Source: Gammaproteobacteria bacterium
Lineage (GTDB): Bacteria; Pseudomonadota; Gammaproteobacteria; Ga0077536
Length of the DNA: 64,000 nucleotides
Direction of reading: 5' to 3'
Assembly: GCA_963662545.2 (NCBI GenBank)
Contig: CAXXLL010000002.1
Span: 1,824,001 to 1,888,000 of the forward strand
Position numbers and translations under genes: made by a program. This document shows positions 18,424 through 36,072 of this stretch, piece by piece (within the stretch, counting starts at the first letter, position 1; each line of letters begins with the position of its first letter). The notes below the pieces were generated by a model, which worked only from the letters and a program-made list of their open reading frames with translations, was not told the DNA's origin and did no database searches.

Positions 18424-19566
18424 TCAGCCATTCGTTCCGGCTGCGCGTTCGCGCCCGTCCGCCGAATCCACACTTGCAGACCCGATGTCGACGAGGCGCG
18501 TCCAACCGTAAGGATCGGGACGGCGGCCATATTGCAAGGCCGTGAGTTCTTCGTAGAGCCGCGTCGCGACGGGCCCCGGTTCACCGTCCCTGATCACGAT
18601 CTCCTGGTCGTCATACGACAGCCGGCCAACCGGGGCCACGACGGCACCGGTGCCCATGCCGAAGATCTCGGTCACCTTGCCGTCCCGCAGGCCCGCTATG
18701 ACTTCGTCGATGGTGATGCGGCGCTCGGTCAGGGTATAGCCCAGGTCTGGTGCGAGCTGGAAAAGCGAGCGGCGGGTGATCCCCTTCAGGATGGCACCCG
18801 TTAAGCTCGGCGTGACGATTTCCTCTCCACCGAACACGAAAGCGATATTCATTGCCCCGACTTCGTCGACGTATTTTCGCTCGACACCGTCGAGCCACAG
18901 TACCTGTTGGTAGCCTTTTTTCAGCGCGATTTCAGTCGCCGCGATGGAGCCGGCGTAATTGCCCGGCGTTTTCGCCTCGCCGGTACCGCCGCGCACCGAA
19001 CGGACGAAATCCCGGGAGACGTACACCGAGACCGGCGCGAAACCCTCGGCAAAATAGGGCGCCACCGGGGACAGAATAATGTAGTGCAGATATTCGTGAC
19101 TCGCCCGGACCTCGAGCGAGGTCTCCGTTGCGATCATGACCGGCCGGATATACAGCGCCGTACCTGCCCGGTCCGGCACCCAGCGGTGCTCCAGGCGCAC
19201 GAGTTCCTCGATCGCGCCTAAGTGAAATTCGGGATCGACGGTCGGCATACCCATGCGCTCGGCTGAGTGATTGAAGCGCTCGACGTTCAACTCCGTGCGG
19301 AACAGGTTGATATTACCGTCGGCCCGGCGGTAGGCCTTGGTGCCGTCGAAGATCATCTGGCCGTTATGGTAGACGGTCGTCGCGGGATCGAGCGTGATGG
19401 AACGGTACGGTCCGATTACAGGGTCGTGCCAACCGCGATCCAGCGAGTACGACTGGGAAAACATGCGGTCGGTAAAGTAAAGGCCGAAGCCGAGGCGCTC
19501 CGGCAGTTCGATCTTTGCGGTTTCACCGATCGGCTCAATGCGTATCTGTTGTCTGATCTCGGACAT
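18424..19566 (-). CDS. ilvE: Branched-chain amino acid aminotransferase (long type)
   Basis: LGFGLYFTDRM, LYIRP, GGTGEAKTPGNY, QQVLWLD, EVGAMNI, ILKGITR, GTGAVVAPVG. Confidence 0.88.
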   Translation of the reverse strand: MSEIRQQIRIEPIGETAKIELPERLGFGLYFTDRMFSQSYSLDRGWHDPVIGPYRSITLDPATTVYHNGQMIFDGTKAYRRADGNINLFRTELNVERFNHSAERMGMPTVDPEFHLGAIEELVRLEHRWVPDRAGTALYIRPVMIATETSLEVRASHEYLHYIILSPVAPYFAEGFAPVSVYVSRDFVRSVRGGTGEAKTPGNYAGSIAATEIALKKGYQQVLWLDGVERKYVDEVGAMNIAFVFGGEEIVTPSLTGAILKGITRRSLFQLAPDLGYTLTERRITIDEVIAGLRDGKVTEIFGMGTGAVVAPVGRLSYDDQEIVIRDGEPGPVATRLYEELTALQYGRRPDPYGWTRLVDIGSASVDSADGRERAAGTNG

Positions 19567-19619
19567 GTGTTTGTTGACTGTAAGAGCCCGTTTGCAGGCG
19601 AATGACGTGATTTAGAATT

Positions 19620-20558
19620 TCAACCGTCGATGGCTTCGGTGAACGCTTCATCCTCGTGCGCCGCCCAGTAGAGCTGGCGAAGTCTGATCGACGCCTCCCC
19701 CGGTTTACCGTCTGCAACCGGCTTGCCATCCAAGCGTGTGACCGGCATGACGCCACCGGCGGTGCTGGTCAAAAAGATCTCGTCAGCGCCGTAAAGAACC
19801 GCCGGGTCAAACATCGTAACACGGGTTTCGATCCCGTCCCGCGCTGCGAGTTCCAGCACCGTCTTGCGCGTGATCCCCTCCAGCACGCCGCTGGCAGGTG
19901 TCCACAGGACGCTATCCTTTAGCACGAAGATGTTAAAGCCCGGGCCCTCGGTCACCTCGCCGGCTGCGTTCAGTAAGACGACGGTTGCCGCTTCGCGCTC
20001 ATAGGCCTCGTATAAACCCCGGGTCATGTCGCCCCAATGGAAATTCTTAATGGCCGGATCGACCGAGCTTGGTTCGATGCGCGTGACCTCGCGGGCGACT
20101 ATTAAGTGAGTGCCGACGAGTTGGTCGGCAGGCTGCACAATCCAGACGTAGGGAATGGCGAAAGCATAGAAACGGTTCTGGAATTGGCGCGGATCGCGAA
20201 CTCCCGCGGGCGGGACGCCACGGGTGAGAATCATCTCAACATAGGCGTCCTCTAGCTGTGATCGGCGGACGCATTCGTGGAGGATTTGGCGCATCTCGGC
20301 AAGCGATAACGGCGGGCGCAGGTGCATTGCCTGCCAACTTCGCTCGAAGCGCGCGAGATGATCTTCGAGCCGAAAGAAACGTTTCTTCCAGGTCGCGACG
20401 ACATCATAGGTGCAATCGGAGCGGGTGAACCCGGTATCCGTGATGGGGATGCGGGCTTTGGCGATGGGCAGGTAGTCGCCCTCGATCCAGGCACAGCCCT
20501 CGGCGTAAATGTTTTCGCTTTCAGTGCTGTTCTCAATATTCGTTGCACGCGTACTCAT
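19620..20558 (-). CDS. Fold-type IV PLP aminotransferase resembling (R)-selective amine transaminases
   Basis: DTGFTRSDCTYDV, FFRLEDH, YVEMILTRG, DPAIKNFHWGD, TEGPGFN, LEGITR, TSTAGG. Confidence 0.85.
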   Translation of the reverse strand: MSTRATNIENSTESENIYAEGCAWIEGDYLPIAKARIPITDTGFTRSDCTYDVVATWKKRFFRLEDHLARFERSWQAMHLRPPLSLAEMRQILHECVRRSQLEDAYVEMILTRGVPPAGVRDPRQFQNRFYAFAIPYVWIVQPADQLVGTHLIVAREVTRIEPSSVDPAIKNFHWGDMTRGLYEAYEREAATVVLLNAAGEVTEGPGFNIFVLKDSVLWTPASGVLEGITRKTVLELAARDGIETRVTMFDPAVLYGADEIFLTSTAGGVMPVTRLDGKPVADGKPGEASIRLRQLYWAAHEDEAFTEAIDG

Positions 20559-22828: not shown

Positions 22829-23200
22829 ATGCACGATTTGAAATTTGGGGTTGTCCTCGGCGATCTGACGATGTCCGCCAGTGAATGCATTCGGCTGGGT
22901 CCCAAGGTCGAGAACTGGGGCTACGATTCGATCTGGATGGCCGATCATTTGATCGATATCGACGGCGCGGTCGCGGACCCTTACACCGTGTTCGGTTACC
23001 TCGCGGCGCGGACTCAGAACGTCCTGAGGCAGATGCATTGCGTCGGCACGGTCGAACAAGTCATTGCGTACTTCGACACCCAGATCCAAGCCGGCGTACG
23101 CCATTTCCTCATCAACCCGGCCGCGAGTCCGGACGTCGACGCGACGCTCGAGGCTTTCAGCACCCAAGTAATGTCGCAGTTAGTGCGGCATTCGCTTTAA
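22829..23200 (+). pseudogene. LLM-class oxidoreductase with large in-frame internal deletion
   Basis: LLM N-terminus (KFGV...GYDSIWMADH...DP...LAART) joined near 23023 directly to an LLM C-terminus (VGTVEQV...AGVRHF...LEAF...VM); only 123 aa. Confidence 0.75.
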
Positions 23201-23355: not shown

Positions 23356-25386
23356 ATGAGCCGCTTCATGCTCGGTGTCGATGTCGGCAGGACGTTCACG
23401 GATTTCGTCGCCTACGATGTGGACACCCAAAAAGTTCGTGTCTGGAAAAATTTGACGACGCCCGATGACCCGACGACGGGCATTCTCGACGGGCTTAGCC
23501 GCATCGAGCCGGCGTCGATCGCGAATCTCCGGCTCGGCACCACGGTCGCGACCAACGCGATCCTCGAGCGCAAGGGGGCACGCGTGGCCTATATCGCGAC
23601 CCGGGGTTTCCGCGACATTCCGTTTCTGCAGCGTGGCAATCGCGCGCATCACTACGACAGCGGATGGATTAAACCCAAGCCGCTGGTCAAGCGTCGCGAC
23701 TGTTTCGAAGTGGACGAGCGCGTGATGAGCAGCGGCGAGGTGCTGGTGGACCTCGACGAGGACAGCGTGCGCCGGGTAGCCGAAAAGATTCGGATGGACG
23801 GCGGCATCGAGGCCGTGGCAGTCAATCTCCTGTTCTCTTACGTGCATCCCGATCACGAGCGCCGTGTGCGTGCCATTCTCGCAGATGAGCTCGGCGAGCT
23901 GCCGATTTCGATCTCGAGCGAGGTATTGCCCAAGTGGAAGGAATACGAACGTGCCTCGACGGTCTTGGCGGACGCCTACATCAAGCCCGTAGTACATCAC
24001 TATCTGCGCGATATGCGGGCGCGTTTTGCCGCCGCCGGCCTGAATGGAAACTGCGTCGTGATCAAGTCGAACGGCGGCGAAATGACGCTCGAAGCAGCCG
24101 CCGAGCAACCCATTCACCTGACACTTTCCGGGCCCACCGGCGGTGTAGTGGCCGCGCACCACATCGCGCGCGAATTGGGACTCGACCGCGTCGTGACCTT
24201 CGATATGGGCGGGACCTCGACGGATTGTTCGACGATCGTCGAGAACCAGATGAGCTTTACGACCAGCTTCGAGATCGAATTCGGCGTCCCGATCCAGATC
24301 CCGATGGCGGATATCCGCACGATTGGCGCGGGCGGCGGATCCATCGCCTGGGTCGACAAGGGCGGTATGTTACGGGTCGGGCCGCAGAGTGCGGGCGCTA
24401 ATCCCGGACCCGCGTGTTACAACTTCGGCGGTGCCGCCGCGACCGTGACCGATGCGAACCTCGTCCTGGGCCGCATCAATCCGGAGAATTTCCTCGGTGG
24501 GACGATGAAACTGGATAGGGCGAATGCGATCGACGCGATCGGTGACCTCGGCGATCGGATTGGGATGACCACGGAAAATACCGCGCTCGCCATATTGCGG
24601 ATCGTCAACAACAACATGGTGGGGGCGCTCAGGACCGTACTGATCGAACGGGGACTAGACCCGCGCGACTTTGCAATGCTCGCCTTCGGCGGCGCTGGAC
24701 CGTTGCATACCGCCGATCTCATGTTTGAAGCGGGGATTCCGACCGGCGTCGTGCCGATACATCCCGGACAGTTTTCCGCTTTGGGCTTTACCTTGGCGGA
24801 CGCGCGGGTTGACCTCGAACGTACCGTGCAGATGAACTCGCAGCATTTCGACATTGAACGCGCGAGCGAGCTTCTTCACGATCTTGTCGATACGGCGACT
24901 CGCAGCTTGACGGAGCAGGGCTATACGGGCGAGCTGCAGATTATCAAAACACTGGAACTCAGGTACCTGGGCCAGAACTACGAACTCGAAGTGCCATTTT
25001 CCTTCGACGCATTCTCGGCAGAGAATGCCGCCGAGGTGTGGGATAGTTTTCACGCCTTGCACGAGGCACGGTTCGGTTTCAATATTCCGCGTGAAGTCAT
25101 CGAGGTCATTACCATCAAGTGCACCGCGGTGTCGTCGACGGAGAAACCGGCGTTCACGCCGCTTGCAACTGCCGATCACGAGCCGGTACCGCTAACGACC
25201 CGTACAGTGTGGTTCGAGGAGGGCAGCTTTGATACGGCAGTCTACGATCGGCTGGACTTGAAAGCCGGTGATCGGATTACCGGGCCGGCATTGATCGAGG
25301 AGGCAGCATCTGTGACCGTGTTGCGCCCGGGACAAACCTTATCCGTCGCACCGCAAGGACATCTGATCCTGCGGCTTGAAAAATGA
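23356..25386 (+). CDS. Hydantoinase/5-oxoprolinase family, A (ATP-binding) subunit
   Basis: GVDVGRTFTD, GTTVATNA, SGPTGG, DMGGTSTD, TIGAGGGSIA, VGPQSAGANPGPACY, FGGAG. Confidence 0.92.
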   Translation: MSRFMLGVDVGRTFTDFVAYDVDTQKVRVWKNLTTPDDPTTGILDGLSRIEPASIANLRLGTTVATNAILERKGARVAYIATRGFRDIPFLQRGNRAHHYDSGWIKPKPLVKRRDCFEVDERVMSSGEVLVDLDEDSVRRVAEKIRMDGGIEAVAVNLLFSYVHPDHERRVRAILADELGELPISISSEVLPKWKEYERASTVLADAYIKPVVHHYLRDMRARFAAAGLNGNCVVIKSNGGEMTLEAAAEQPIHLTLSGPTGGVVAAHHIARELGLDRVVTFDMGGTSTDCSTIVENQMSFTTSFEIEFGVPIQIPMADIRTIGAGGGSIAWVDKGGMLRVGPQSAGANPGPACYNFGGAAATVTDANLVLGRINPENFLGGTMKLDRANAIDAIGDLGDRIGMTTENTALAILRIVNNNMVGALRTVLIERGLDPRDFAMLAFGGAGPLHTADLMFEAGIPTGVVPIHPGQFSALGFTLADARVDLERTVQMNSQHFDIERASELLHDLVDTATRSLTEQGYTGELQIIKTLELRYLGQNYELEVPFSFDAFSAENAAEVWDSFHALHEARFGFNIPREVIEVITIKCTAVSSTEKPAFTPLATADHEPVPLTTRTVWFEEGSFDTAVYDRLDLKAGDRITGPALIEEAASVTVLRPGQTLSVAPQGHLILRLEK

Positions 25387-25442
25387 TTGTCCCGATTCGG
25401 TACAGGTGATTACCAGGCTGTCAATACAACTGGAGGCCACTG

Positions 25443-27152
25443 ATGTCTGCAACTCGCAAATTAGACCTCGTCACCATGAACATCGTCGAAAATACGATGG
25501 TGTCGATCTGCCGCGAAATGGGCATTACCTTGATGAAGACGTCTTATTCGACGATCTTCAACGAAGCACTCGATTTTACCTGCGCGATCGCATCGCCGCG
25601 TGGCGAAATGCTCGCCGTCGCCGAATTCTGCCCTGCTCAAATCGGCGGCATGCCTCTGTTGATCAAATCGTGTCTGGAAGAGATCCCTTTATCGGAGATC
25701 GAACCGGGTGACGTTCTCGTGCACAACGACCCCTATCGGGGCGGCTTGCATACACCCGAACACACGCTGTTCTGCCCGGTCTACGTGGATGACGAATTGA
25801 TCGCTTTCACCGTTGCGATCGGTCACATCGCCGAAGTGGGCGGCATGGTACCAGGTGGTTTTCCCGCGGAAGCGACCGAGATCTTCCACGAGGGTATCCG
25901 GGTTCCCCCGGTCAAGATCAAAAAGCGTGGCGAGGACGTACCGGAAGTCTGGAAAATCTGGCTCGCGAACGTCCGCACGCCGCGCTACAACTACGGCGAC
26001 ATGCGGGCGTTGATATCGGGCGTCGAGATCGGTGTCCGCCGCCTGCAGGACACGGTAGCCAAGTACGGGCGTGAAGCATTCAAATCGATCTGCGGGGATC
26101 TGATGGATTATGCCGAAGCCCGCATGCGCGCGGAGATCGCCGAGATTCCGGATGGCAAATACAGCTTCGTCGATTACATGGACAACGACGGCGTATCGGA
26201 ATCTGAAATCCGCATAGAAGCGCACTGCTACGTACAGAAAGACGAAATCGTGGTCGATTACACCGGCAGTACGGCACAGGTCTCCGGCCCCATCAACGCC
26301 ACGCTCGGAGTCGCCTGGTCGGCCGCCTACAATGCCATCTTGCACTTGACCGATCCCTCGATCCCGAAAAATTCCGGGTGCTTCCGGCCCATTCGCATCG
26401 TCGCGCCGCAGGGTACGATCGTGAACGTCGACTATCCTGCGCCGGAAGTCGGCGGCAACACCGAGACCCACCCGCGGATTGCGGGCGCGGTCATCGGCGC
26501 GCTCGCGCAGGCTGCGCCGCAGCGCGCAATGGCTGGCGAAGGCGGTACCCATCTCAATTTCGTCTTCGGGGGGATCGATCGAAAACACGACGAATATTTC
26601 GCGTGTTATGACATCGAAACGGTCGGCTGGGGCGCGCGTCCGTTTGCCGACGGTAACGACGCTACCGATTCGATCAATGGCAATTGCCGGTTCATGCCGG
26701 TCGAAGTTTACGAGACACGCTATCCGTGGCTGACGGAGGAGTTCTGCCTGCGCGCCGATTCCGGCGGCGCCGGCGAATTTCGCGGCGGTCTCGGTACCCA
26801 GAAGACCTGGCGCTGTCTCGACGCCGAAATCACTTGCAGCCAATTGACCGATCGCCACGTCCACCAGGCCTGGGGGTTCGACGGTGGGCGTCCCGGTGCG
26901 ACCGGCAATACGTTGTTCATGCAGGCCGGCAAAACCAACTGGCAGACGATGGTCGAGGCCTTCGGCAAGAGTTCGACCAGCAAGTGGTCGAACGTGGTGA
27001 TCAAGCCCGGCGATCGAGTGCGTCTCATGACGCCGGGCGGGGGCGGCTGGGGCGCTCCCGGCAAGCGCAAGCGCGAGTTTATCGACGAAAATCTGGCCGA
27101 AGGCTGGATTACGCTCGAACGCGCACGTAATGATTACGATAGCGATGCGTAG
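25443..27152 (+). CDS. Hydantoinase B/oxoprolinase family subunit
   Basis: S.IFNEALDF, NDPYRGGLHTP, HIAEVGG, EIFHEG, DSGGAGEFRGG, TPGGGGWG. Confidence 0.92.
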   Translation: MSATRKLDLVTMNIVENTMVSICREMGITLMKTSYSTIFNEALDFTCAIASPRGEMLAVAEFCPAQIGGMPLLIKSCLEEIPLSEIEPGDVLVHNDPYRGGLHTPEHTLFCPVYVDDELIAFTVAIGHIAEVGGMVPGGFPAEATEIFHEGIRVPPVKIKKRGEDVPEVWKIWLANVRTPRYNYGDMRALISGVEIGVRRLQDTVAKYGREAFKSICGDLMDYAEARMRAEIAEIPDGKYSFVDYMDNDGVSESEIRIEAHCYVQKDEIVVDYTGSTAQVSGPINATLGVAWSAAYNAILHLTDPSIPKNSGCFRPIRIVAPQGTIVNVDYPAPEVGGNTETHPRIAGAVIGALAQAAPQRAMAGEGGTHLNFVFGGIDRKHDEYFACYDIETVGWGARPFADGNDATDSINGNCRFMPVEVYETRYPWLTEEFCLRADSGGAGEFRGGLGTQKTWRCLDAEITCSQLTDRHVHQAWGFDGGRPGATGNTLFMQAGKTNWQTMVEAFGKSSTSKWSNVVIKPGDRVRLMTPGGGGWGAPGKRKREFIDENLAEGWITLERARNDYDSDA

Positions 27153-28245: not shown

Positions 28246-28566
28246 CGTCCATTTCCCCATCAGGTGATCTCGTTGCAATGCAAGCCAGCCCCGCGGCGGA
28301 GAAGCGCATCTGGGACACCCGCAATGCTTACCCCATGCCGGCGTTGACTACGGGTCAAGTTTACAGCTTTCTGGAACCCGCGGTGCCATATCTCGGGCAA
28401 CTTGCGCGACCCTAGCCAATTGGTGACCGCACACGACAGGAAATGCGCTTAACACCGGATTCGGTATAAAAGGAAAAACACTCCCGCCGCGAGCAGGTAG
28501 GGGTTAAACTTGAACGCCAGCAACGTCGATGCGCTTAAATGCCGGATTTCTTTAATGACTGCATAC

Positions 28567-29793
28567 ATGACACATGCATTGCCTGACATCGTGTTGACCG
28601 ATCACCTTCGAGGCATCCTGGATCAACTCGATGAATCCATCACTGATCTCGAATCCTGCATCTCCCTCCCGCCAGAAGTGTATACCTCCGAAGCGTGGTT
28701 CGAATTTGAGAAGCGGGCGGTATGGGACCGCGAATGGATCTGTGTCGGGCATGTCGGACACATTCCCGAAACGGGCGACTACACGTCGATCACTATCAAC
28801 GATGATCCGCTGCTGGTATTGCGCGGCTTAGAAGGGGAAATACGCGTCATGTCGGCGGTTTGCCAGCACCGCGGCCACCTGCTCGGCGAAGCCAGCGGCA
28901 ATACCCGGGTGTTCACCTGTCCGTTTCACGCCTGGTCCTACGATCTTGAAGGCAGGCTCTTGAGCGCACCCGAAATGAAGGCGCATGCGTCACTGGACGA
29001 ACTTCGGAAAACGTTTTGCCTACCGCGCTTGTGCGTGGAGATTTGGCAAGGTTTCATTTTCGTCAACATAGATGGCAACGCGCCGCCGCTCGGCGCGAGA
29101 CTCAAGCGGCTGTCGAAGGAAATTGCGAATCATCACCTGGGCGAGATGGGGGCAACGCCGACGGTAGACTGGCCGGACAATCCATGGAACTGGAAATTTA
29201 TGCATGAAAACGCGATTGAACCCCACCATACCGGCTACTTACACAAGGGACCACACGATTTCGCCCCGCCGCGCCTGGCGAGTTTCTTCGCGTGGAACGA
29301 GCAAGACGATGGCGCGATATTTCATCCGACCGGTTTCCTGACCAGGGACGCCAACTTCACCGCGGGGTTTCGCTGCCTATTCCCAATCATCGAAACGCTG
29401 ACCGATGCAGAACGACAGCGGGTCATGTTTGCATGCGTTCTGCCGAACCTGTTTTTCGGCTGTGTCCCAGACGGCTGTTTCTATTACTGGATTCTGCCGC
29501 AAGGCGTCGGCGCACTCACCCTGCGCGTAGGGTTTTTGTACCCTCATTCGACGCTGCACATGGATAACTTTGATGTCACTCTGAAAGCCGTGATCGACGG
29601 CATATCCATTTATAACGATCAGGATACGATCGCAAATACTTCGGTTCACAAAGGCCTCAAATCTAGGTTCGCCAATCGCGGGCGATATGGCCCGAAGGAA
29701 GCGACACTGCAGCAGATGAACCGCTGGTTAGTGAAGCGATACCGTGAATATGCCGAAGACCTTATGGCCATCCGGAGCGCGGATGATCGATGA
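28567..29793 (+). CDS. Rieske non-heme iron oxygenase alpha subunit
   Basis: Rieske CQHRG...CPFHAWSY; catalytic NWK...ENAIEPHHTGYLH and NDQD; start uncertain (28510-28567). Confidence 0.9.
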   Translation: MTHALPDIVLTDHLRGILDQLDESITDLESCISLPPEVYTSEAWFEFEKRAVWDREWICVGHVGHIPETGDYTSITINDDPLLVLRGLEGEIRVMSAVCQHRGHLLGEASGNTRVFTCPFHAWSYDLEGRLLSAPEMKAHASLDELRKTFCLPRLCVEIWQGFIFVNIDGNAPPLGARLKRLSKEIANHHLGEMGATPTVDWPDNPWNWKFMHENAIEPHHTGYLHKGPHDFAPPRLASFFAWNEQDDGAIFHPTGFLTRDANFTAGFRCLFPIIETLTDAERQRVMFACVLPNLFFGCVPDGCFYYWILPQGVGALTLRVGFLYPHSTLHMDNFDVTLKAVIDGISIYNDQDTIANTSVHKGLKSRFANRGRYGPKEATLQQMNRWLVKRYREYAEDLMAIRSADDR

Positions 29794-29806
29794 CGGTCCT
29801 AGGGAT

Positions 29807-30559
29807 ATGGCCATGAGCGACCGCGAACTCGAACGGATCAAGGATCGCCTGGACGACCTCGAAGCGCGGCTGCAGGACATCGAAGATCGCGATGCGATCG
29901 TGACCTTAATAGTCGATTATGCGCGAGCCTGCGATCAAGGAAACGACCCCTTGCTCCTCGACCCATTGTTTACGGAAGACGCCGTGTGGGAATGCGGGGG
30001 TTTCGGGCGTTACGAGGGAAGGGCGCGGCTCTGTTCGGCATTGCAAGGGATAGCCGCAGAGAAGATCTGGTGGTCACTGCACTACATGATCTCGCCCAGG
30101 ATCGAAATTGACGCCGACAATGACTGCGCGACCGCCTTTTGGTACCTGTGGGAGTCGGCGACGATTCCCGACAGCGCCACTGACAAGCCGGAACCCCATT
30201 GGATCGGCGCCACCTATGACGCGATCGTCGTCAAGCAGGCGGGGCGGTGGTTGTTCCAGTCGATGCAACTAAACCTCAACATGGTCAGTCCTTACTCAGA
30301 CGGATGGGTCAAGCGCCCATTTCCAGAGGGCGGCGCCAATCTTCCGTATTTTCAAAAAACGGAACCGGGTAACTATGCCTGGTGCGCGTGCGGTCGCTCG
30401 AAGAGACAACCTTTTTGCGACGGCTCGCATAGAGACACGGCTGTCCAACCGTGCAGATTTAACGTTGAATCCGAGAAGCTACTGGCTCTGTGCGGTTGCA
30501 AGCGCACCGCAACGCCCCCCTATTGCGACGGGACGCATATGGACCTGGATTTCGATTAG
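29807..30559 (+). CDS. NTF2/SnoaL-like domain fused to two CDGSH iron-sulfur motifs
   Basis: EDRDAI..L...YARACD...LFTEDAVW...G.YEGR...HY...P.I (SnoaL_4-like); WCACGRSKRQPFCDGSH and LCGCKRTATPPYCDGTH. Confidence 0.82.
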   Translation: MAMSDRELERIKDRLDDLEARLQDIEDRDAIVTLIVDYARACDQGNDPLLLDPLFTEDAVWECGGFGRYEGRARLCSALQGIAAEKIWWSLHYMISPRIEIDADNDCATAFWYLWESATIPDSATDKPEPHWIGATYDAIVVKQAGRWLFQSMQLNLNMVSPYSDGWVKRPFPEGGANLPYFQKTEPGNYAWCACGRSKRQPFCDGSHRDTAVQPCRFNVESEKLLALCGCKRTATPPYCDGTHMDLDFD

Positions 30560-30569
30560 AAGTGGTCTC

Positions 30570-31613
30570 ATGGCACGTTCGAGCTTTTTCGCCGAATCAA
30601 CCACTGCGAACCGTCCCGTCGACGAGGTTTTCGAACAGTCGAATGCATTGTTCGCACGGCTGAAACACCCGCGGCAAGAACCGGCTGATGGAGAACATGT
30701 CTGCGTCCATGCCAGTTTCGAAAGCGCCGAATACATCCGCGCCTTCTGGCCTCACCTACGACGTCTGATCGACGCGGATCCGCGTAAGCTCGGATTGAGC
30801 GTCGAGCAACCCGGCGGCCGCCTCGAAGTAGGTGAGATCCAACGATCGATATCGGACAGAGGTGCTTCTCTCGGCAACGAAACCGAAGTCCGGCTCATGA
30901 TGACGACCATTGCGCCGCTGACGATGATGAGCAGGATCCTGAATGAGGCAACCGACGGTTTTGCAGCGGACTTGTCATCGGGTCGCGGACGATGTCCGTT
31001 GGCGTTCGAGCTGGATCCCGAGCGTTTCGTGTCGCTGCGCACGCTTTTTCCGCGGAAGGATCGACAGGGTAAGGTCGGCGGTAACGCGCCGACCCTGGTG
31101 ATGGGAGGTACCGCGACGGCCGTGGCGATGTGCTGGAATTTACTACATCGCATGCCGCGCGCTTATTACGAATGTGAACAGATCGAACTCGATCGCGACA
31201 CGGCTGAGCAGATCTGGGCGCAGACGCGCGAACTGATCTTTCGGATAGGCGGCGGCAGCCTGGCCGCTTTCGTAGCCCTCGCGAGTGCCTGCTCCTCCAA
31301 TGCGGCGGCGCTAAAGTGGGACGGCGCCAAGGATCTTGGGCTCGCGACCTCGGCGGGGCGCTATGAATGGACCATGAATAGTGCCCTTCTCGGACGTTTT
31401 GATGAAATTCTGACGACGGTCAGGGAATCGCAGAAGGGTCATTACGTCGGCTGTGCGGCCCTGTTCGCACGTGCTGAACCGCTACCCTTGTCACCCGATT
31501 TTGCCGACGCCGTTTCCGACGACAGGGAGCCGACGGTTTTTTCTGAACTCATTCGATGGATCACTGCGGTCGCGCGTGCCGAATATTTTCCGCAATTCGA
31601 AAATCGCGGATGA
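30570..31613 (+). CDS. Hypothetical protein
   Basis: 347-codon ORF starting 11 bp after the CDGSH gene on the same strand; no family recognised. Confidence 0.6.
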   Translation: MARSSFFAESTTANRPVDEVFEQSNALFARLKHPRQEPADGEHVCVHASFESAEYIRAFWPHLRRLIDADPRKLGLSVEQPGGRLEVGEIQRSISDRGASLGNETEVRLMMTTIAPLTMMSRILNEATDGFAADLSSGRGRCPLAFELDPERFVSLRTLFPRKDRQGKVGGNAPTLVMGGTATAVAMCWNLLHRMPRAYYECEQIELDRDTAEQIWAQTRELIFRIGGGSLAAFVALASACSSNAAALKWDGAKDLGLATSAGRYEWTMNSALLGRFDEILTTVRESQKGHYVGCAALFARAEPLPLSPDFADAVSDDREPTVFSELIRWITAVARAEYFPQFENRG

Positions 31614-31744: not shown

Positions 31745-32059
31745 CTATCGATAGGCGGAAACGGCCTTACGGCCCTTCACGATTCGTTTAATTTCGGACC
31801 TTGTGGCGTCGCGTGTTTCGATGGCTGCACTGCGTACCCGCTCGATGAGATGCTGCGCGCTTTTGAACTGCGTTTGCACGCTGTGAGCGTCAGCCCGTGG
31901 CGCTGCGCGGAGCAAAGTCGAAAATTCTCCTGCAAGCAATCTGACCGCATGCCAATCAGCGGACTCCATGGCCTGTTCGAGGGCCCCGGCTTTTTCGTCG
32001 ACACAGCGCGCCCACCCATCGAAAGAGTTCATTGCAGCCGGCGTGCCTTCAACCGACAA
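31745..32059 (-). CDS. FliT-like small helical flagellar protein
   Basis: Overlaps fliS 3' end, helical, ends KGRKAVSAY as in FliT-like proteins. Confidence 0.5.
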   Translation of the reverse strand: MSVEGTPAAMNSFDGWARCVDEKAGALEQAMESADWHAVRLLAGEFSTLLRAAPRADAHSVQTQFKSAQHLIERVRSAAIETRDATRSEIKRIVKGRKAVSAYR

Positions 32060-32507
32060 GTAGTTCCGTCGGGCCGATTTCGTTTTGTACCGGCGCCGCG
32101 CCTTGCCCCTCGACTTCTCCCTCGATGGCCTTCCAGGCGAGCCGTCCCTCGATCAGCAGCGCTTCGACTTCATTTAGCTTGCGCCGATCGCTATTGAGGT
32201 TGGCTTCGACCAGAGTACGGACCATGTATTCGTAGAGCCGGTCCAGGTTCGATGCGAGTTCGCCGCCCTTTTCCATGTTGAGGCTGGCTCGCAGTCCGTC
32301 GATGATCGATATCGCCCAGCTTATATTCGTGCCTTTAGCGGCAATTTCGTCTCTTTCCATAGCCAGTCGCGCCGCACGAATCTTGTCGATCGCACCATCG
32401 ATCAGCAGCAGGATCAGTCGATGGGGGGATGCCGTTTCAATGTCCGTTCTCAAGCCGAGCCGGGCGTACTCGTCGACTGCATTCAGAACGTTTTGCGATT
32501 GACCCAT
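32049..32507 (-). CDS. fliS: Flagellar export chaperone FliS
   Basis: ASPHRLILLLIDGAI, IIDGLRASLNMEKGGELASNLDRLYEYM. Confidence 0.93.
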   Translation of the reverse strand: MGQSQNVLNAVDEYARLGLRTDIETASPHRLILLLIDGAIDKIRAARLAMERDEIAAKGTNISWAISIIDGLRASLNMEKGGELASNLDRLYEYMVRTLVEANLNSDRRKLNEVEALLIEGRLAWKAIEGEVEGQGAAPVQNEIGPTELLVG

Positions 32508-32600
32508 GTTGTTTCCCTCTTCGTTCGTGTCCGATTCGCCGAATTCCCTTACGATTGATCGACAGGCCGTGAAATTTCTTCCCTCGTCATTTCTTTATCG

Positions 32601-33962
32601 TCATGAATTGTTAAACCTGAAGTTCGTCGTTGCAGCGATTTGCTCGAGCTGAACAGTCAGGAAGCTGCTCGTCGAATTCAGTTGCGCGATCAAGGTGTCA
32701 AGCGCAGTGAATTGAGCGACCAGGGTTGCTTCCTTTTGCGCTAGACGGAATTCGAGGTTGAGGCGTCGATCCTCGAGTTCCTTGATCTGTTGGTTGAGAC
32801 TCTCCTCGCGGCTGTCGAACAATCCACCCGACTCCAGTAGCGTGCCGGCCAGGGCCTCGAAGCGGACCGCGATCCCGCCGGGATCATTGGAGAAGAGGTC
32901 CGCGATCCCGTCGGGGTCGGTCGCGAGTGCGCTCTCAAGGACCGTTGAGTCCAGCGTCAACTGTCCGTCGAGTTGTGTCGACACCCCAAGCTCGAACAGA
33001 AATTGGAAGGCGCCCGATGCCGCCCCCGCGGTGTTGAGAATACCGCGAAACTGCGATTCTAAGCTCAGAAGCGAGGCACGATCGGTGCGGAGTACATCAC
33101 CCTTCAGCTCTTCGATGACGCTGATGATCTCGTTGTAGGTACCGATGAATTGGTTGACGGACCCCGTGATCTTGGCCGTATCCAAGTCGATGTCGAGCGT
33201 GGTCGTACCCGCGCTTTCGAGATTGAGCGTAATACCCTGGATGACGTCGCTGATCGTGTTCGTACCGCGCGTCACCGTAAAACTGTTTTCGATGGTCAAC
33301 ACGGCGTCCAGATCCGCACTGGTAAACGTGCCACTCCCGTCGCGGTCGGCATTGAGATCTTGCAGGCTGAACGGATCAATGCCGCTGTAGGCAACACTGA
33401 TGAACTCGGCGGACCCGGTGTCATCAGCCGACAGGGTCAGGTGATAGCCCGTATCGTCCTGCAGGGTGGACGCCGTAACGCCTGCATTGTCGCTGGCGCC
33501 GTTGACGGCATTGCGAATCTCATCGAGGCTCTTACCACCGATATCGACGACGAACGCAGTGCCGCCGACTGTTATTGTCATGGTATCGCCCGGGTTACCG
33601 ATGAGAGTCGTATCGGTATCGGCGAAGACGTTCGCGGCCGCCATGCGGTGATTTTCCGCGATACGGTTTACCTGCACGTTGAAAACACCCTTGGCCGCAC
33701 TGCTGTCCGCAGTCGCCGTCAGGACGTCCTCGTCGGATGAACCGACCGCGAAGAATTTGAATTGGTCCGGATCGCTCAGATTCTGCATCGCGCTCTGGAA
33801 AATCGAGACCGTGCTCTTGAGCTTACCGATGCCGCTCAACTGTGCCTGGAGCTCAATCTTGTCGACGCTGAGCTGCACCAGCGGCCGCCGTTCGATAGCA
33901 ATCAGCTGGTTGATGATACTCGTGATGTCAAGGCCGGAACCGATTCCCGGGCTGCTCAGCAT
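32601..33962 (-). CDS. fliD: Flagellar filament cap FliD
   Basis: SSPGIGSGLD..SII.QL, NTISDVIQGITLNL, L..QFTALDTLI.QLNS. Confidence 0.93.
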   Translation of the reverse strand: MLSSPGIGSGLDITSIINQLIAIERRPLVQLSVDKIELQAQLSGIGKLKSTVSIFQSAMQNLSDPDQFKFFAVGSSDEDVLTATADSSAAKGVFNVQVNRIAENHRMAAANVFADTDTTLIGNPGDTMTITVGGTAFVVDIGGKSLDEIRNAVNGASDNAGVTASTLQDDTGYHLTLSADDTGSAEFISVAYSGIDPFSLQDLNADRDGSGTFTSADLDAVLTIENSFTVTRGTNTISDVIQGITLNLESAGTTTLDIDLDTAKITGSVNQFIGTYNEIISVIEELKGDVLRTDRASLLSLESQFRGILNTAGAASGAFQFLFELGVSTQLDGQLTLDSTVLESALATDPDGIADLFSNDPGGIAVRFEALAGTLLESGGLFDSREESLNQQIKELEDRRLNLEFRLAQKEATLVAQFTALDTLIAQLNSTSSFLTVQLEQIAATTNFRFNNS

Positions 33963-34022
33963 GGCGATTCTCGCAGGTCAGAAAGCAAAACTAACGATTG
34001 GGCCTGCAATATCGGGGCCACT

Positions 34023-34415
34023 TCAGGCGGTTTCGACGACGAACAGGCCCGAGAGGTCTTCGAGACGTTGGGCGAGTGCGAGGACCTCCTTGGGTGGAAT
34101 CTGGCGGATCACCTCGTTGGTCTCCTTATCGACCACGGTAATCACTGTGCGCCCGCTGATTTCGTCCACAGTGAACTCGAGCGAACGCTGTACGGTTCTT
34201 ATGTTCTGTGAGATGTCTTTGAGCGCGGCCTGCAGCGCGTCGGAATCAACCTGCGGGATGGTGTTTGACGGTGCCGGAGACAACACGGCGACGGAGGCTG
34301 CAGGCGAATGTTTGGCCTCAATCGCCGCCAGCGCCGGCGTGCCGGCTGCGTGCCGCAATGATCCCACTTCACGCAGCGCCGCCTGGATCCTGTTGGCTGC
34401 GACCTGAGCGACCAT
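34023..34415 (-). CDS. flaG: FlaG family protein
   Basis: LEFTVDE.SGR.VITVVDKET.EVIRQIP..EVL. Confidence 0.9.
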   Translation of the reverse strand: MVAQVAANRIQAALREVGSLRHAAGTPALAAIEAKHSPAASVAVLSPAPSNTIPQVDSDALQAALKDISQNIRTVQRSLEFTVDEISGRTVITVVDKETNEVIRQIPPKEVLALAQRLEDLSGLFVVETA

Positions 34416-34438
34416 TACGCTACCTCTCGTTGGTAAGT

Positions 34439-34465
34439 GTGCCCGGACCGCATCGGTCCGGGCAC
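34439..34465 (-). terminator. 12-bp perfect stem hairpin downstream of flagellin (terminator or mRNA-stabilising)
   Basis: GTGCCCGGACCG-cat-CGGTCCGGGCAC between fliC stop and flaG start; only a weak U-tract on the minus strand. Confidence 0.6.
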
Positions 34466-34493
34466 TTTATTATGGGATGTTTGTCTTATTGGC

Positions 34494-35972
34494 CTACTGC
34501 AACAGCGCCAATACGGCCTGCGGTACGGCGTTGGCCTGCGAGACCATCGCTATACCTGCCTGCTGCAGTATTTGCGCGCGGATCAAGTTGGCCGATTCCA
34601 TGGCGAAATCCGCGTCCTGGATCCGTCCACGCGCGGCGGAGATGTTCTCCCGCACGTTTTCCAGGTTGCGCACGACCGCCTCGAAACGGTTCAGCTTGGC
34701 GCCGAGAATGGCGCGGTCACCGTTGATCGAATCGATGGCGCCCTGGAAGGACAACAGGGCCAAGTTGGCCGCCGTAGCGGTCAAGACCGTCTGCGCATTG
34801 ACTGGCGCGTCGGTGAGCGTGGTCGTCGCCGAGCTGACACCTGTAACCGCTAAGCCGGTGGCGGCTGCGTCGTAGGTGACCGTGTTGGTGCCCAGGTCGT
34901 CGTTAAGCACGATCAGGCCATTTGCCCCTGCATCGACCGAAGTCGTGCCGATCGCAAAGCCCGTGATGTCGTCGACGTTGGCATCGTTGAGGGTCACGGT
35001 GATGGCCGCGCCCGTGCTGTTCAGCAGCACCAGACGATTCTGGTTCGCCGCGGCGCCCGCATCGCGTACGGCCGTCACGCCATGCTGGCCCGTCAAGGCG
35101 TTGATGTTGGTGATGAGGTCGTCCATGGTCGTCAGCGCGCCATTGCCGTCGACGCTGATGCCATTGATGGTGAGGGCATTGCTGCCGACGGTCAGGCCGA
35201 CGGCGCCGGTTGCGTTGGCATCGGTGACGTCGGTGCTGGCCACGGCGGCATTGCCGTAGCTGAACGCCGTGACGCCGGTCGAGCCCGTCACGTTGTTGAT
35301 GGCGTCGATCTTGGTGATCGAATTGGAGCTGGCCGCCACGGCTGCCAGCACGATGCCGTTCAGCGCGTCGGCGGCACCGTCGAACACGCCATCGAAGGTG
35401 TTCCTGATGCGGTCGGCAAAGGTGGCGCCGAGACCGAGGGCATCGACCGCCGTGTATTCTGAAGCGACACCGAGTCCAGTCGGCGACAGGTTGCTGATCG
35501 CAATGTTAATGGTCTCGTTGACGTTCGTGCCGACCTGTATATCGGCGCTAAAGCCGCCGGTCAGGAGTTTCTCGCCGTTGTAACGGGTCTGGTTCACCAC
35601 CCGGCTCAATTCGTCGAGGATTTGGCTAACTTCCTGGTTCAGCGAAGTGCGGTCCGCACTGGTGTTATAGCTGGCAGCCTGCAGCGCCAGGTCATTGGCG
35701 CGGTTCAGCGCCTTGACCATTTCGTCCATCGAGCCTTCCGCCGTCTGCGCGACGGAAATACCGTCGTTGGCGTTGCGGATGGCCACGGACAGGCCGCTGA
35801 CCTGCACGCTCATGCGCGTTGCAATCGCGAGACCAGCGGCGTCGTCCTTGGCCGAATTAATGCGCAAACCGGACGACAGACGCTGAATCGACGTCGCCAG
35901 ATCGCTTTGCGTACGGTTCAGGTAACGCTGCGCCGTCATGGAAATGATGTTGGTATTAATCGTTTGAGGCAT
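34494..35972 (-). CDS. fliC: Flagellin
   Basis: INTN, QRLSSGLRINSAKDDAAGLAIA, RNANDGIS.AQTAEG, RA.LGA..NRF, RI.DADFA.E, ILQQAG..M..QAN..PQ.VL.LL; GGAGG before ATG 35972. Confidence 0.96.
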   Translation of the reverse strand: MPQTINTNIISMTAQRYLNRTQSDLATSIQRLSSGLRINSAKDDAAGLAIATRMSVQVSGLSVAIRNANDGISVAQTAEGSMDEMVKALNRANDLALQAASYNTSADRTSLNQEVSQILDELSRVVNQTRYNGEKLLTGGFSADIQVGTNVNETINIAISNLSPTGLGVASEYTAVDALGLGATFADRIRNTFDGVFDGAADALNGIVLAAVAASSNSITKIDAINNVTGSTGVTAFSYGNAAVASTDVTDANATGAVGLTVGSNALTINGISVDGNGALTTMDDLITNINALTGQHGVTAVRDAGAAANQNRLVLLNSTGAAITVTLNDANVDDITGFAIGTTSVDAGANGLIVLNDDLGTNTVTYDAAATGLAVTGVSSATTTLTDAPVNAQTVLTATAANLALLSFQGAIDSINGDRAILGAKLNRFEAVVRNLENVRENISAARGRIQDADFAMESANLIRAQILQQAGIAMVSQANAVPQAVLALLQ

Positions 35973-36072
35973 GAGTAGACCTCCTAATGAGGACACCCGC
36001 GTGTCGGCCGGCGTCGTGCAATATTGACGGATATATCCTATAAAATCGGATATTCACCGCCTCCGACGAGAA

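Follow-up and report, generated by a model that had tools for sequence, protein, structure and literature searches.

Two adjacent genes in a 64,000-nucleotide stretch of a Gammaproteobacteria bacterium genome (GenBank assembly GCA_963662545.2, contig CAXXLL010000002.1, positions 1,824,001 to 1,888,000; hereafter the window) encode the alpha subunit of an oxygenase of the Rieske non-heme iron type and a fusion protein in which an NTF2/SnoaL_4 barrel is followed by a tandem CDGSH iron-sulfur domain. The pair is a real and conserved two-gene module, whose parts are of known kinds and whose combination is apparently undescribed. Our preferred joint reading, to which we give a probability of about 0.42, is that the oxygenase and a lyase encoded by the two genes act together in the catabolism of aromatic or heterocyclic compounds, and that the CDGSH domain is their redox relay.

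We found no paper that describes a SnoaL-CDGSH fusion or its pairing with a Rieske oxygenase, most subscription papers lying outside the search. One CDGSH survey (PMC5859297) makes no mention of SnoaL in its main text, and a 2025 review of Rieske oxygenases (PMC12445004) makes none of CDGSH in its own.

Organization and distribution of the gene pair

Pfam matches and motif positions confirm the arrangement described in the original prediction, in which a SnoaL/NTF2 domain with two complete CDGSH motifs directly follows the alpha subunit. The alpha matches the Rieske (E 2e-19) and Ring_hydroxyl_A (E 3e-27) families, and the fusion matches SnoaL_4 at residues 22–151 (E 1e-19) and zf-CDGSH in two stretches (E 8e-18). 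Alignment of relatives places the alpha start at 28555, the second ATG at 28567 being the one taken as the start earlier. Only 19 nt separate the alpha stop from the fusion, and AGGGA lies 7 nt upstream of the fusion ATG. A tblastn search of the whole window with 18 queries (16 from the source genome and two from related loci) found no ferredoxin, reductase or beta subunit, which bears out the earlier statement that none is nearby. A complex prediction for alpha and fusion scored 0.00 against a mark of 0.32, and we drew no conclusion from it.

The fusion is not unique to the source assembly. Its SnoaL_4 plus CDGSH architecture is present in 107 of the 120 homologues listed (the best 120 of 629 matches; 45–88% identity), and it recurs in an Atlas cluster of 169 members. 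The AlphaFold2 (AF2) monomer model is confident throughout (pLDDT 96, pTM 0.90). Residues 3–41 form the N-terminal helix that had been noted as a coiled N-terminus; in the alignment this helix has counterparts at the N-termini of LdpA and BaiE, and it is therefore a trait of the family and not an added domain. No triple fusion of Rieske, NTF2 and CDGSH domains, or one with a reductase, is present among the longer proteins listed (120 of 399), which is weak evidence.

Scans of GTDB genomes and of metagenomes yielded 128 loci; 112 of these carry the fusion family, and 16 NTF2-only or distant loci were set aside. The fusion is tightly linked to Rieske alphas, with an alpha of clade A or B (see below) within 600 nt of it in 93 of the 112 loci (54 of 61 among the GTDB loci). 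Five of the remaining loci have a related alpha farther off, three have a distant alpha only, and 11 have none, ten of the latter ending within ∼740 nt of the fusion on one side. Record titles of the fusion loci include Gammaproteobacteria, Alphaproteobacteria, Binatia, 'delta proteobacteria' and Planctomycetota. Clade B loci show three layouts of the pair, with the alpha upstream of the fusion, divergent from it or downstream, and in L034, L050, L072, L081 and L085 the fusion directly follows an alpha of a third, ∼26% identical clade.

Genome searches were also begun from the alphas, with the fusion looked for within 1.5 kb of each. It was found beside 11 of 12 clade A alphas and one of four from clade B (two rows being one place), and beside none of 27 alphas of the sister clade C and none of 20 more distant ones. 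None of the 11 clade A positives is new: each is the window or a locus from the scans above, and five come from genomes chosen because they carry the fusion. Alpha and NTF2 distances are correlated across 58 pairs (Mantel rho 0.75, 0/999 permutations); seven truncated or frameshifted fusion loci (L053, L060, L111, L114, L116, L117 and L128) were left out of this test. Trees were built with FastTree and rooted at the midpoint, so we claim no direction of transfer. Locus L048 carries a record title of Actinobacteria, although both of its proteins nest among those of Sphingomonadaceae, and it is therefore probably a misbinned contig.

The Rieske alpha subunit

The mononuclear iron ligands H225, H230 and D357 are invariant in the aligned alphas. 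The bridging residue E222 begins an EPHH sequence, the first His of which is usually Tyr in relatives, and is replaced by Asp in clade B. Clade A, to which the window alpha belongs, comprises 70 rows with a Glu bridge that are 51–93% identical to it; clade B has 14 rows (Asp bridge, ∼40% identical) and the sister clade C has 27 (Asp bridge). In fold, the alpha model is closest to the group V alpha3 monooxygenases (CntA, Stc2 and GbcA; Z 35–39). Stc2, TM1040_3219 and CntA fill ranks 1–10, Stc2 at Z 39.0 (root-mean-square deviation, rmsd, 2.4 over 371 aligned residues) and CntA at 36.8, whereas the best alpha3beta3 enzyme reaches 34.2. CntA is also the best profile match (E 2e-45), and clade A shares its bridging Glu.

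The original prediction had compared this Glu to that of CntA-type amine oxygenases. The residue is indeed present, but it is not tied to the fusion, as clade B has Asp, and the position of the substrate-binding aromatic residue Y203 of CntA is occupied by Ala220. This position is aromatic (Tyr/Phe) in group Va and Asn in group Vb (PMC7948474). The alpha is 17–23% identical to the group V enzymes, and the curated GbcA model gives it 109.8 bits, below the cut-off of 670. In view of Ala220 and of the Asp in clade B, we rejected the argument that the Glu marks a CntA-type amine oxygenase; judged by its signature, the window alpha is not a group V member.

Clade C (NNND motif; L141–L168) accounts for the matches in a Sphingomonadaceae sample, where 25 of 401 genomes matched. 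It often adjoins a gene for a 161-aa protein and genes that presumably encode acetamidase-like, AraC-like and ring-cleavage-like proteins. Directly beside alphas of another beta-less clade lies a 114–125-aa protein (L034:6059-6400, L050:6439-6783, L062:7627-7968 and L192:8624-8977), the L034 copy of which has no Pfam or NCBIfam match; open reading frames (ORFs) of similar size adjoin alphas in L066, L123, L125 and L193. This protein may be an undescribed small subunit of that Rieske clade.

The NTF2 barrel

The best structural matches of the barrel are LinA (Z 20.1, rmsd 1.7, 142 residues aligned), LdpA (Z 17.4) and BaiE (Z 16.3). Foldseek and VIA-align both rank these and scytalone-dehydratase-like proteins at the top, and the profile search is headed by LdpA (1e-14), BaiE and LinA. 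With the LdpA/PcfL formaldehyde lyases, LinA, BaiE and scytalone dehydratase (8ABT/8ABV, 3A76, 4L8P) the fusion shares its fold and long N-terminal helix at ∼20–24% identity, and it has a His-Asp dyad and two tyrosines at equivalent positions. LdpA uses a His97/Asp40 dyad, a Tyr35/Tyr147 oxyanion hole and Glu143 as a second acid, the dyad and oxyanion-hole residues being essential by mutagenesis (PMC9942872), and the same dyad is described across the family in a paper on gallate decarboxylase (PMC7862292). Y35, D40, H97 and Y147 of NaLdpA align with Y36, D41, H90 and Y135 of the fusion, which are invariant in 106 of 106 fusion sequences; W59, W87, H90, Y111 and W113 are invariant residues of the pocket. 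We consider it probable that the barrel is catalytic and acts on the product or substrate of the oxygenase. The characterized enzymes differ in that they have no C-terminal tandem CDGSH domain, whereas the fusion has one and adjoins a Rieske oxygenase gene.

Relatives of the barrel that have no CDGSH domain adjoin Rieske alphas of another clade in L062, L066, L123 and L125, and on plasmids in L192 and L193, which suggests that the tie of the barrel to oxygenases is independent of the iron-sulfur domain. In L193 a ferredoxin gene directly follows the CDGSH-less NTF2 gene, the place that the CDGSH domain has in the fusion. The Acinetobacter locus L192 (L192:5966-13391; plasmid NZ_CP048671.1) contains an NTF2 protein 39% identical to the fusion barrel, two genes after a beta-less Rieske alpha. 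The order there is acetamidase, Rieske alpha, small protein, NTF2, styrene/indole monooxygenase and flavin reductase, and then SDR, ferredoxin and reductase; it thus differs from the window in having an alpha of another clade and a normal ferredoxin and reductase in the operon. By gene order and spacing alone, L192 fits the skatole-induced genes 1684–1690 of A. piscicola p38, whose NTF2 gene is given no function in the text covering that cluster (PMC11434297). In Chloroflexota, arrays of three to eight tandem NTF2-like genes occur (L063:8502-10015, L068:6817-10576 and L120:168-4440), adjoined in L063 and L120 by luciferase-like genes.

The tandem CDGSH domain

The two 3Cys-1His motifs of the fusion lie 20 residues apart, as in the type 6 CISD proteins MmCISD (3TBN) and human MiNT/CISD3 (6AVJ), which are also the best PDB sequence matches of the domain (E 7e-19 and 3e-17, respectively). 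Tandem CDGSH motifs define type 6 (PMC3174974), and by this comparison the domain is a type 6 (MmCISD/MiNT) tandem domain that is predicted to bind clusters. It differs from type 6 proteins, and from those of type 5 with their glutamate-synthase FMN-domain fusion, in being joined to an NTF2 lyase domain. The CDGSH surveys list fusions to glutamate synthase, DUF1271, Fer4_19, ferritin-like, thioredoxin, Cyt-b5 and Rieske domains (PMC3174974, PMC5859297); a SnoaL/NTF2 fusion is absent from these lists, although the supplements of the surveys could hold such proteins.

In one Novosphingobium lineage motif 1 has changed or disappeared, with loss in two Novosphingobium loci, and this decay occurs only in a lineage that bears a ferredoxin (L054–L056, L058, L061 and L110). 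Across 113 loci no reductase, CntB-type or other, was found, and no ferredoxin was found outside the alphaproteobacterial-type clade, the gammaproteobacterial, Binatia and clade B loci having none. As to where electrons might come from, mitoNEET clusters, whose midpoint potential is about -30 mV, accept them from FMNH2 that a generic flavin reductase supplies (PMC9490426).

Longer proteins with a CDGSH pair are mostly flavoenzyme fusions, among the 120 of 399 matches listed. They include tandem CDGSH domains fused to an acyl-CoA-dehydrogenase-like flavoprotein (P0243), to a protein with Rieske and thiamine-enzyme parts (P0259) and to a DAO-type flavoprotein (P0362). A protein that joins the N-terminal half of an alpha to a CDGSH pair (P0238, on one 2-kb contig) is probably a deletion or misassembly and was not used. 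Two further tandem-CDGSH regions occur in the source genome (C3:314277-314501 and C3:2792640-2792840).

Proposed mechanism and alternatives

We propose that the pair is a mobile module for two catabolic steps. In the first, a beta-less and probably alpha3 Rieske oxygenase, to judge from its fold and metal ligands, would put oxygen into an aromatic or heterocyclic substrate. The NTF2 domain would then resolve the unstable product of the oxygenase as an active acid-base enzyme, using a His90-Asp41 dyad and a Tyr36/Tyr135 oxyanion hole; it could, for example, remove water from a cis-dihydrodiol, giving a phenol or catechol precursor, or cleave a carbinolamine or hemiacetal. The third and weakest part of the proposal is that the MiNT-type tandem CDGSH domain would be the redox relay of the module, with electrons passing to it most likely from a reduced flavin, or from a ferredoxin or reductase encoded elsewhere, and from it to the Rieske center, cluster 2 being the essential one. 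That the CDGSH domain relays electrons to the alpha we regard as an even bet. In favor of such a relay are the prevalence of flavoenzyme fusions among the longer relatives listed, the reduction of mitoNEET by FMNH2, the ferredoxin gene that takes the CDGSH place in L193, and the lack of a reductase in the 113 loci and of a ferredoxin beyond the alphaproteobacterial-type clade. What the sequences show is the architecture, the linkage, the catalytic residues and the metal ligands. It is rather unlikely that the pair represents a new class of Rieske system, in which a dedicated NEET-type tandem carrier is fused to the finishing enzyme and obtains its electrons from free reduced flavin or from a generic reductase. 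Were this true, the oxygenase would be fed, and its unstable product captured, by a single protein, and bacterial CDGSH domains would gain a defined physiological redox partner.

Several observations weigh against the proposed module and its relay. The position of LdpA Glu143 is occupied by Ile131 in the fusion (Ile in 96, Val in nine and Thr in one of 106 sequences), although the nearly invariant E114 might substitute for this second acid. One fusion, in L033, is a real exception to the linkage, with 8 kb upstream and 2 kb downstream free of any alpha, and conversely one clade A alpha (L130) and two clade B places (L132/L133, which are one, and L172) have no fusion within 1.5 kb; the sister clade C also occurs without it. 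Several metagenome loci repeat GTDB loci, so the locus counts are not independent. The Mantel correlation does not show co-evolution, because adjacent genes are co-inherited, and the short CDGSH domain tracks the alpha weakly (rho 0.36, 58 pairs). A conventional Rieske ferredoxin adjoins the pair in 22 of 113 loci, all of the alphaproteobacterial-type clade, and motif 2 is kept there. Oxygenase Rieske centers have potentials similar to or lower than that of mitoNEET, and transfer from CDGSH to Rieske center could thus be uphill. Finally, among the 13 other alpha-size Rieske ORFs of the source genome, none lies within 10 kb of a reductase (PF00970 or PF14759), and only two lie that close to a ferredoxin-size ORF. 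Alphas without a neighboring donor are thus the norm in this genome and the missing donor is uninformative; after this control we rejected the argument that the fusion must be the donor as none is nearby.

The most serious alternative, which we hold to be doubtful but well within reach, keeps the barrel as a pathway lyase and has an ordinary ferredoxin and reductase, encoded in trans or next door, drive the oxygenase. The CDGSH domain would then carry out a one-electron step on a quinone-methide-like intermediate, sense redox state or nitric oxide (NO), or store or repair iron-sulfur clusters. Donors are plentiful in trans (four ferredoxin-size Rieske ORFs and nine reductase-domain matches in the genome), 105 of 106 sequences retain motif 2, those from ferredoxin-bearing loci among them, and the confidence of AF2 over both domains suggests that they are packed and not freely tethered. 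For NEET clusters, moreover, reversible binding of NO is described and a role as cluster donors has been suggested (PMC9490426). These points have to be set against the description of the characterized LinA, BaiE and LdpA-type enzymes as cofactor-free acid-base catalysts and the lack of a ferredoxin in three groups of loci noted above; the confinement of motif 1 decay to the ferredoxin-bearing lineage is likewise what partial redundancy with a donor predicts, albeit from one lineage and one event.

The other two alternatives are improbable, the second marginally the more so. The original prediction had offered, as one option, a beta-like subunit with an electron or cluster donor, that is, a structural partner in an alpha3beta3 enzyme that has a built-in ferredoxin equivalent and a non-catalytic NTF2 pocket. 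The alpha-then-NTF2 order and the tight spacing do mimic alpha-beta operons, such as those of NDO, BPDO and TPADO, and true beta subunits have an NTF2-like fold. The fusion, however, has no PF00866 match at E 0.01, whereas a true beta subunit in L002 scores 53.9 bits; beta subunits are absent among the fold matches listed for the barrel, where lyases fill the top rows, although they may stand among families beyond that listing. The lyase tetrad and pocket are invariant, the alpha is closest to the beta-less Stc2 and CntA, and no small NTF2 partner lies within 1.5 kb of the clade C relatives. A single fusion family also pairs with alphas that are only ∼40% identical, and with the ∼26% identical third clade. 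Alternatively, the two proteins might share only a pathway, with the fusion acting at least one step from the oxygenase and no direct chemical or electronic link between them, as the exceptions in both directions (L033, L130, L132 and L172) and the NTF2-only relatives in clusters without a Rieske gene (L063–L065, L068, L120, L194 and L195) might indicate. Yet the pair is the sole constant across very different neighborhoods, the next commonest neighbors being present in 33 of 113 loci, and its adjacency persists through rearrangements. Among the options originally offered, a product-processing lyase with an iron-sulfur domain fits the evidence best.

Redox partners that are not known are named as a main barrier for new Rieske oxygenases in the 2025 review (PMC12445004), and the CDGSH surveys give no partner or reaction for bacterial members in the text that deals with them (PMC3174974, PMC5859297). 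Both questions could be addressed with this small, soluble, two-gene system; Novosphingobium carriers (Rr 2-17, Leaf2 and AP12) are in culture, and nature provides variants that have or lack a ferredoxin and have motif 1 intact or lost. Even if the CDGSH domain is not the donor, the fusion would be an iron-sulfur-bearing member of a normally cofactor-free lyase family beside an unstudied oxygenase subfamily, and would indicate a catabolic step of marine, soil and peat bacteria that is as yet undescribed.

Gene neighborhoods and other features

Genes of phenolic catabolism are frequent neighbors. Apart from the pair itself, the commonest genes encode FAD-linked oxidases (33/113), UbiD-family decarboxylases (33/113) and a VdcD-like small subunit (29/113); VdcC, VdcD and one catechol 2,3-dioxygenase among the neighbors exceed NCBIfam cut-offs. 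Other groups of loci have intradiol dioxygenases, HpaB-like hydroxylases, molybdoenzymes, TauD enzymes, amidases and deaminases, and SDR genes, which could encode dihydrodiol dehydrogenases, are sporadic neighbors only. In the window the neighbors are hydantoinase A/B and an alpha/beta hydrolase, by Pfam. These neighborhoods point to aromatic or heterocycle catabolism, with no particular substrate named. FAD-linked oxidases and a molybdoenzyme near the pair in L015:8914-10584 and L086:8741-11863 have twin-arginine-like N-termini, read from the sequence, and are therefore probably exported; the pair itself has no such signal.

Table 1. Coordinates of the gene pair and its features in the window.
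Feature	Position	Strand	Remarks
Rieske non-heme iron oxygenase alpha subunit, 412 aa	28555..29793	+	Pfam, alignment, fold; clade A of an uncharacterized subfamily
Rieske [2Fe-2S] ligands C103, H105, C122, H125	28861..28929	+	invariant in 65/65 aligned alphas
Bridging Glu222 and mononuclear Fe ligands H225, H230	29218..29244	+	third ligand D357 at 29623-29625
NTF2/SnoaL_4 + tandem CDGSH fusion protein, 248 aa	29813..30559	+	
LdpA/LinA/BaiE-type NTF2 barrel with Y36, D41, H90, Y135	29876..30265	+	
CDGSH motif 1 (3Cys-1His), C191-C193-C202-H206	30383..30430	+	four ligands aligned in 102/106
CDGSH motif 2 (3Cys-1His), C227-C229-C238-H242	30491..30538	+	four ligands aligned in 105/106
347-aa ORF	30570..31613	+	10 nt after the fusion; no Pfam or NCBIfam match

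Relatives of the 347-aa ORF follow the fusion in only three other loci (L001, L091 and L109), and we therefore place it outside the core module; a VipB label for it (Atlas match, 0.90, low recognition) was rejected as weak. A promoter scan gave no sites, and terminator-like matches (seven, against 3.7 ± 2.2 in shuffles) were not used. A plasmid search matched 37 records, none of them over 80% of the query, and a search of sequencing runs listed no RNA run that contains the query.

Elsewhere in the window, a 123-aa luciferase-like monooxygenase fragment (22829-23200, plus strand), which covers profile positions 21–68 of 314 and is probably a remnant, stands just before the hydantoinase A/B genes at 23356-27152. 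Two class IV aminotransferase genes lie in tandem on the minus strand at 18424-20558, and a block on the same strand at 31745-35996 presumably encodes flagellin and FliD/FliS-like proteins.

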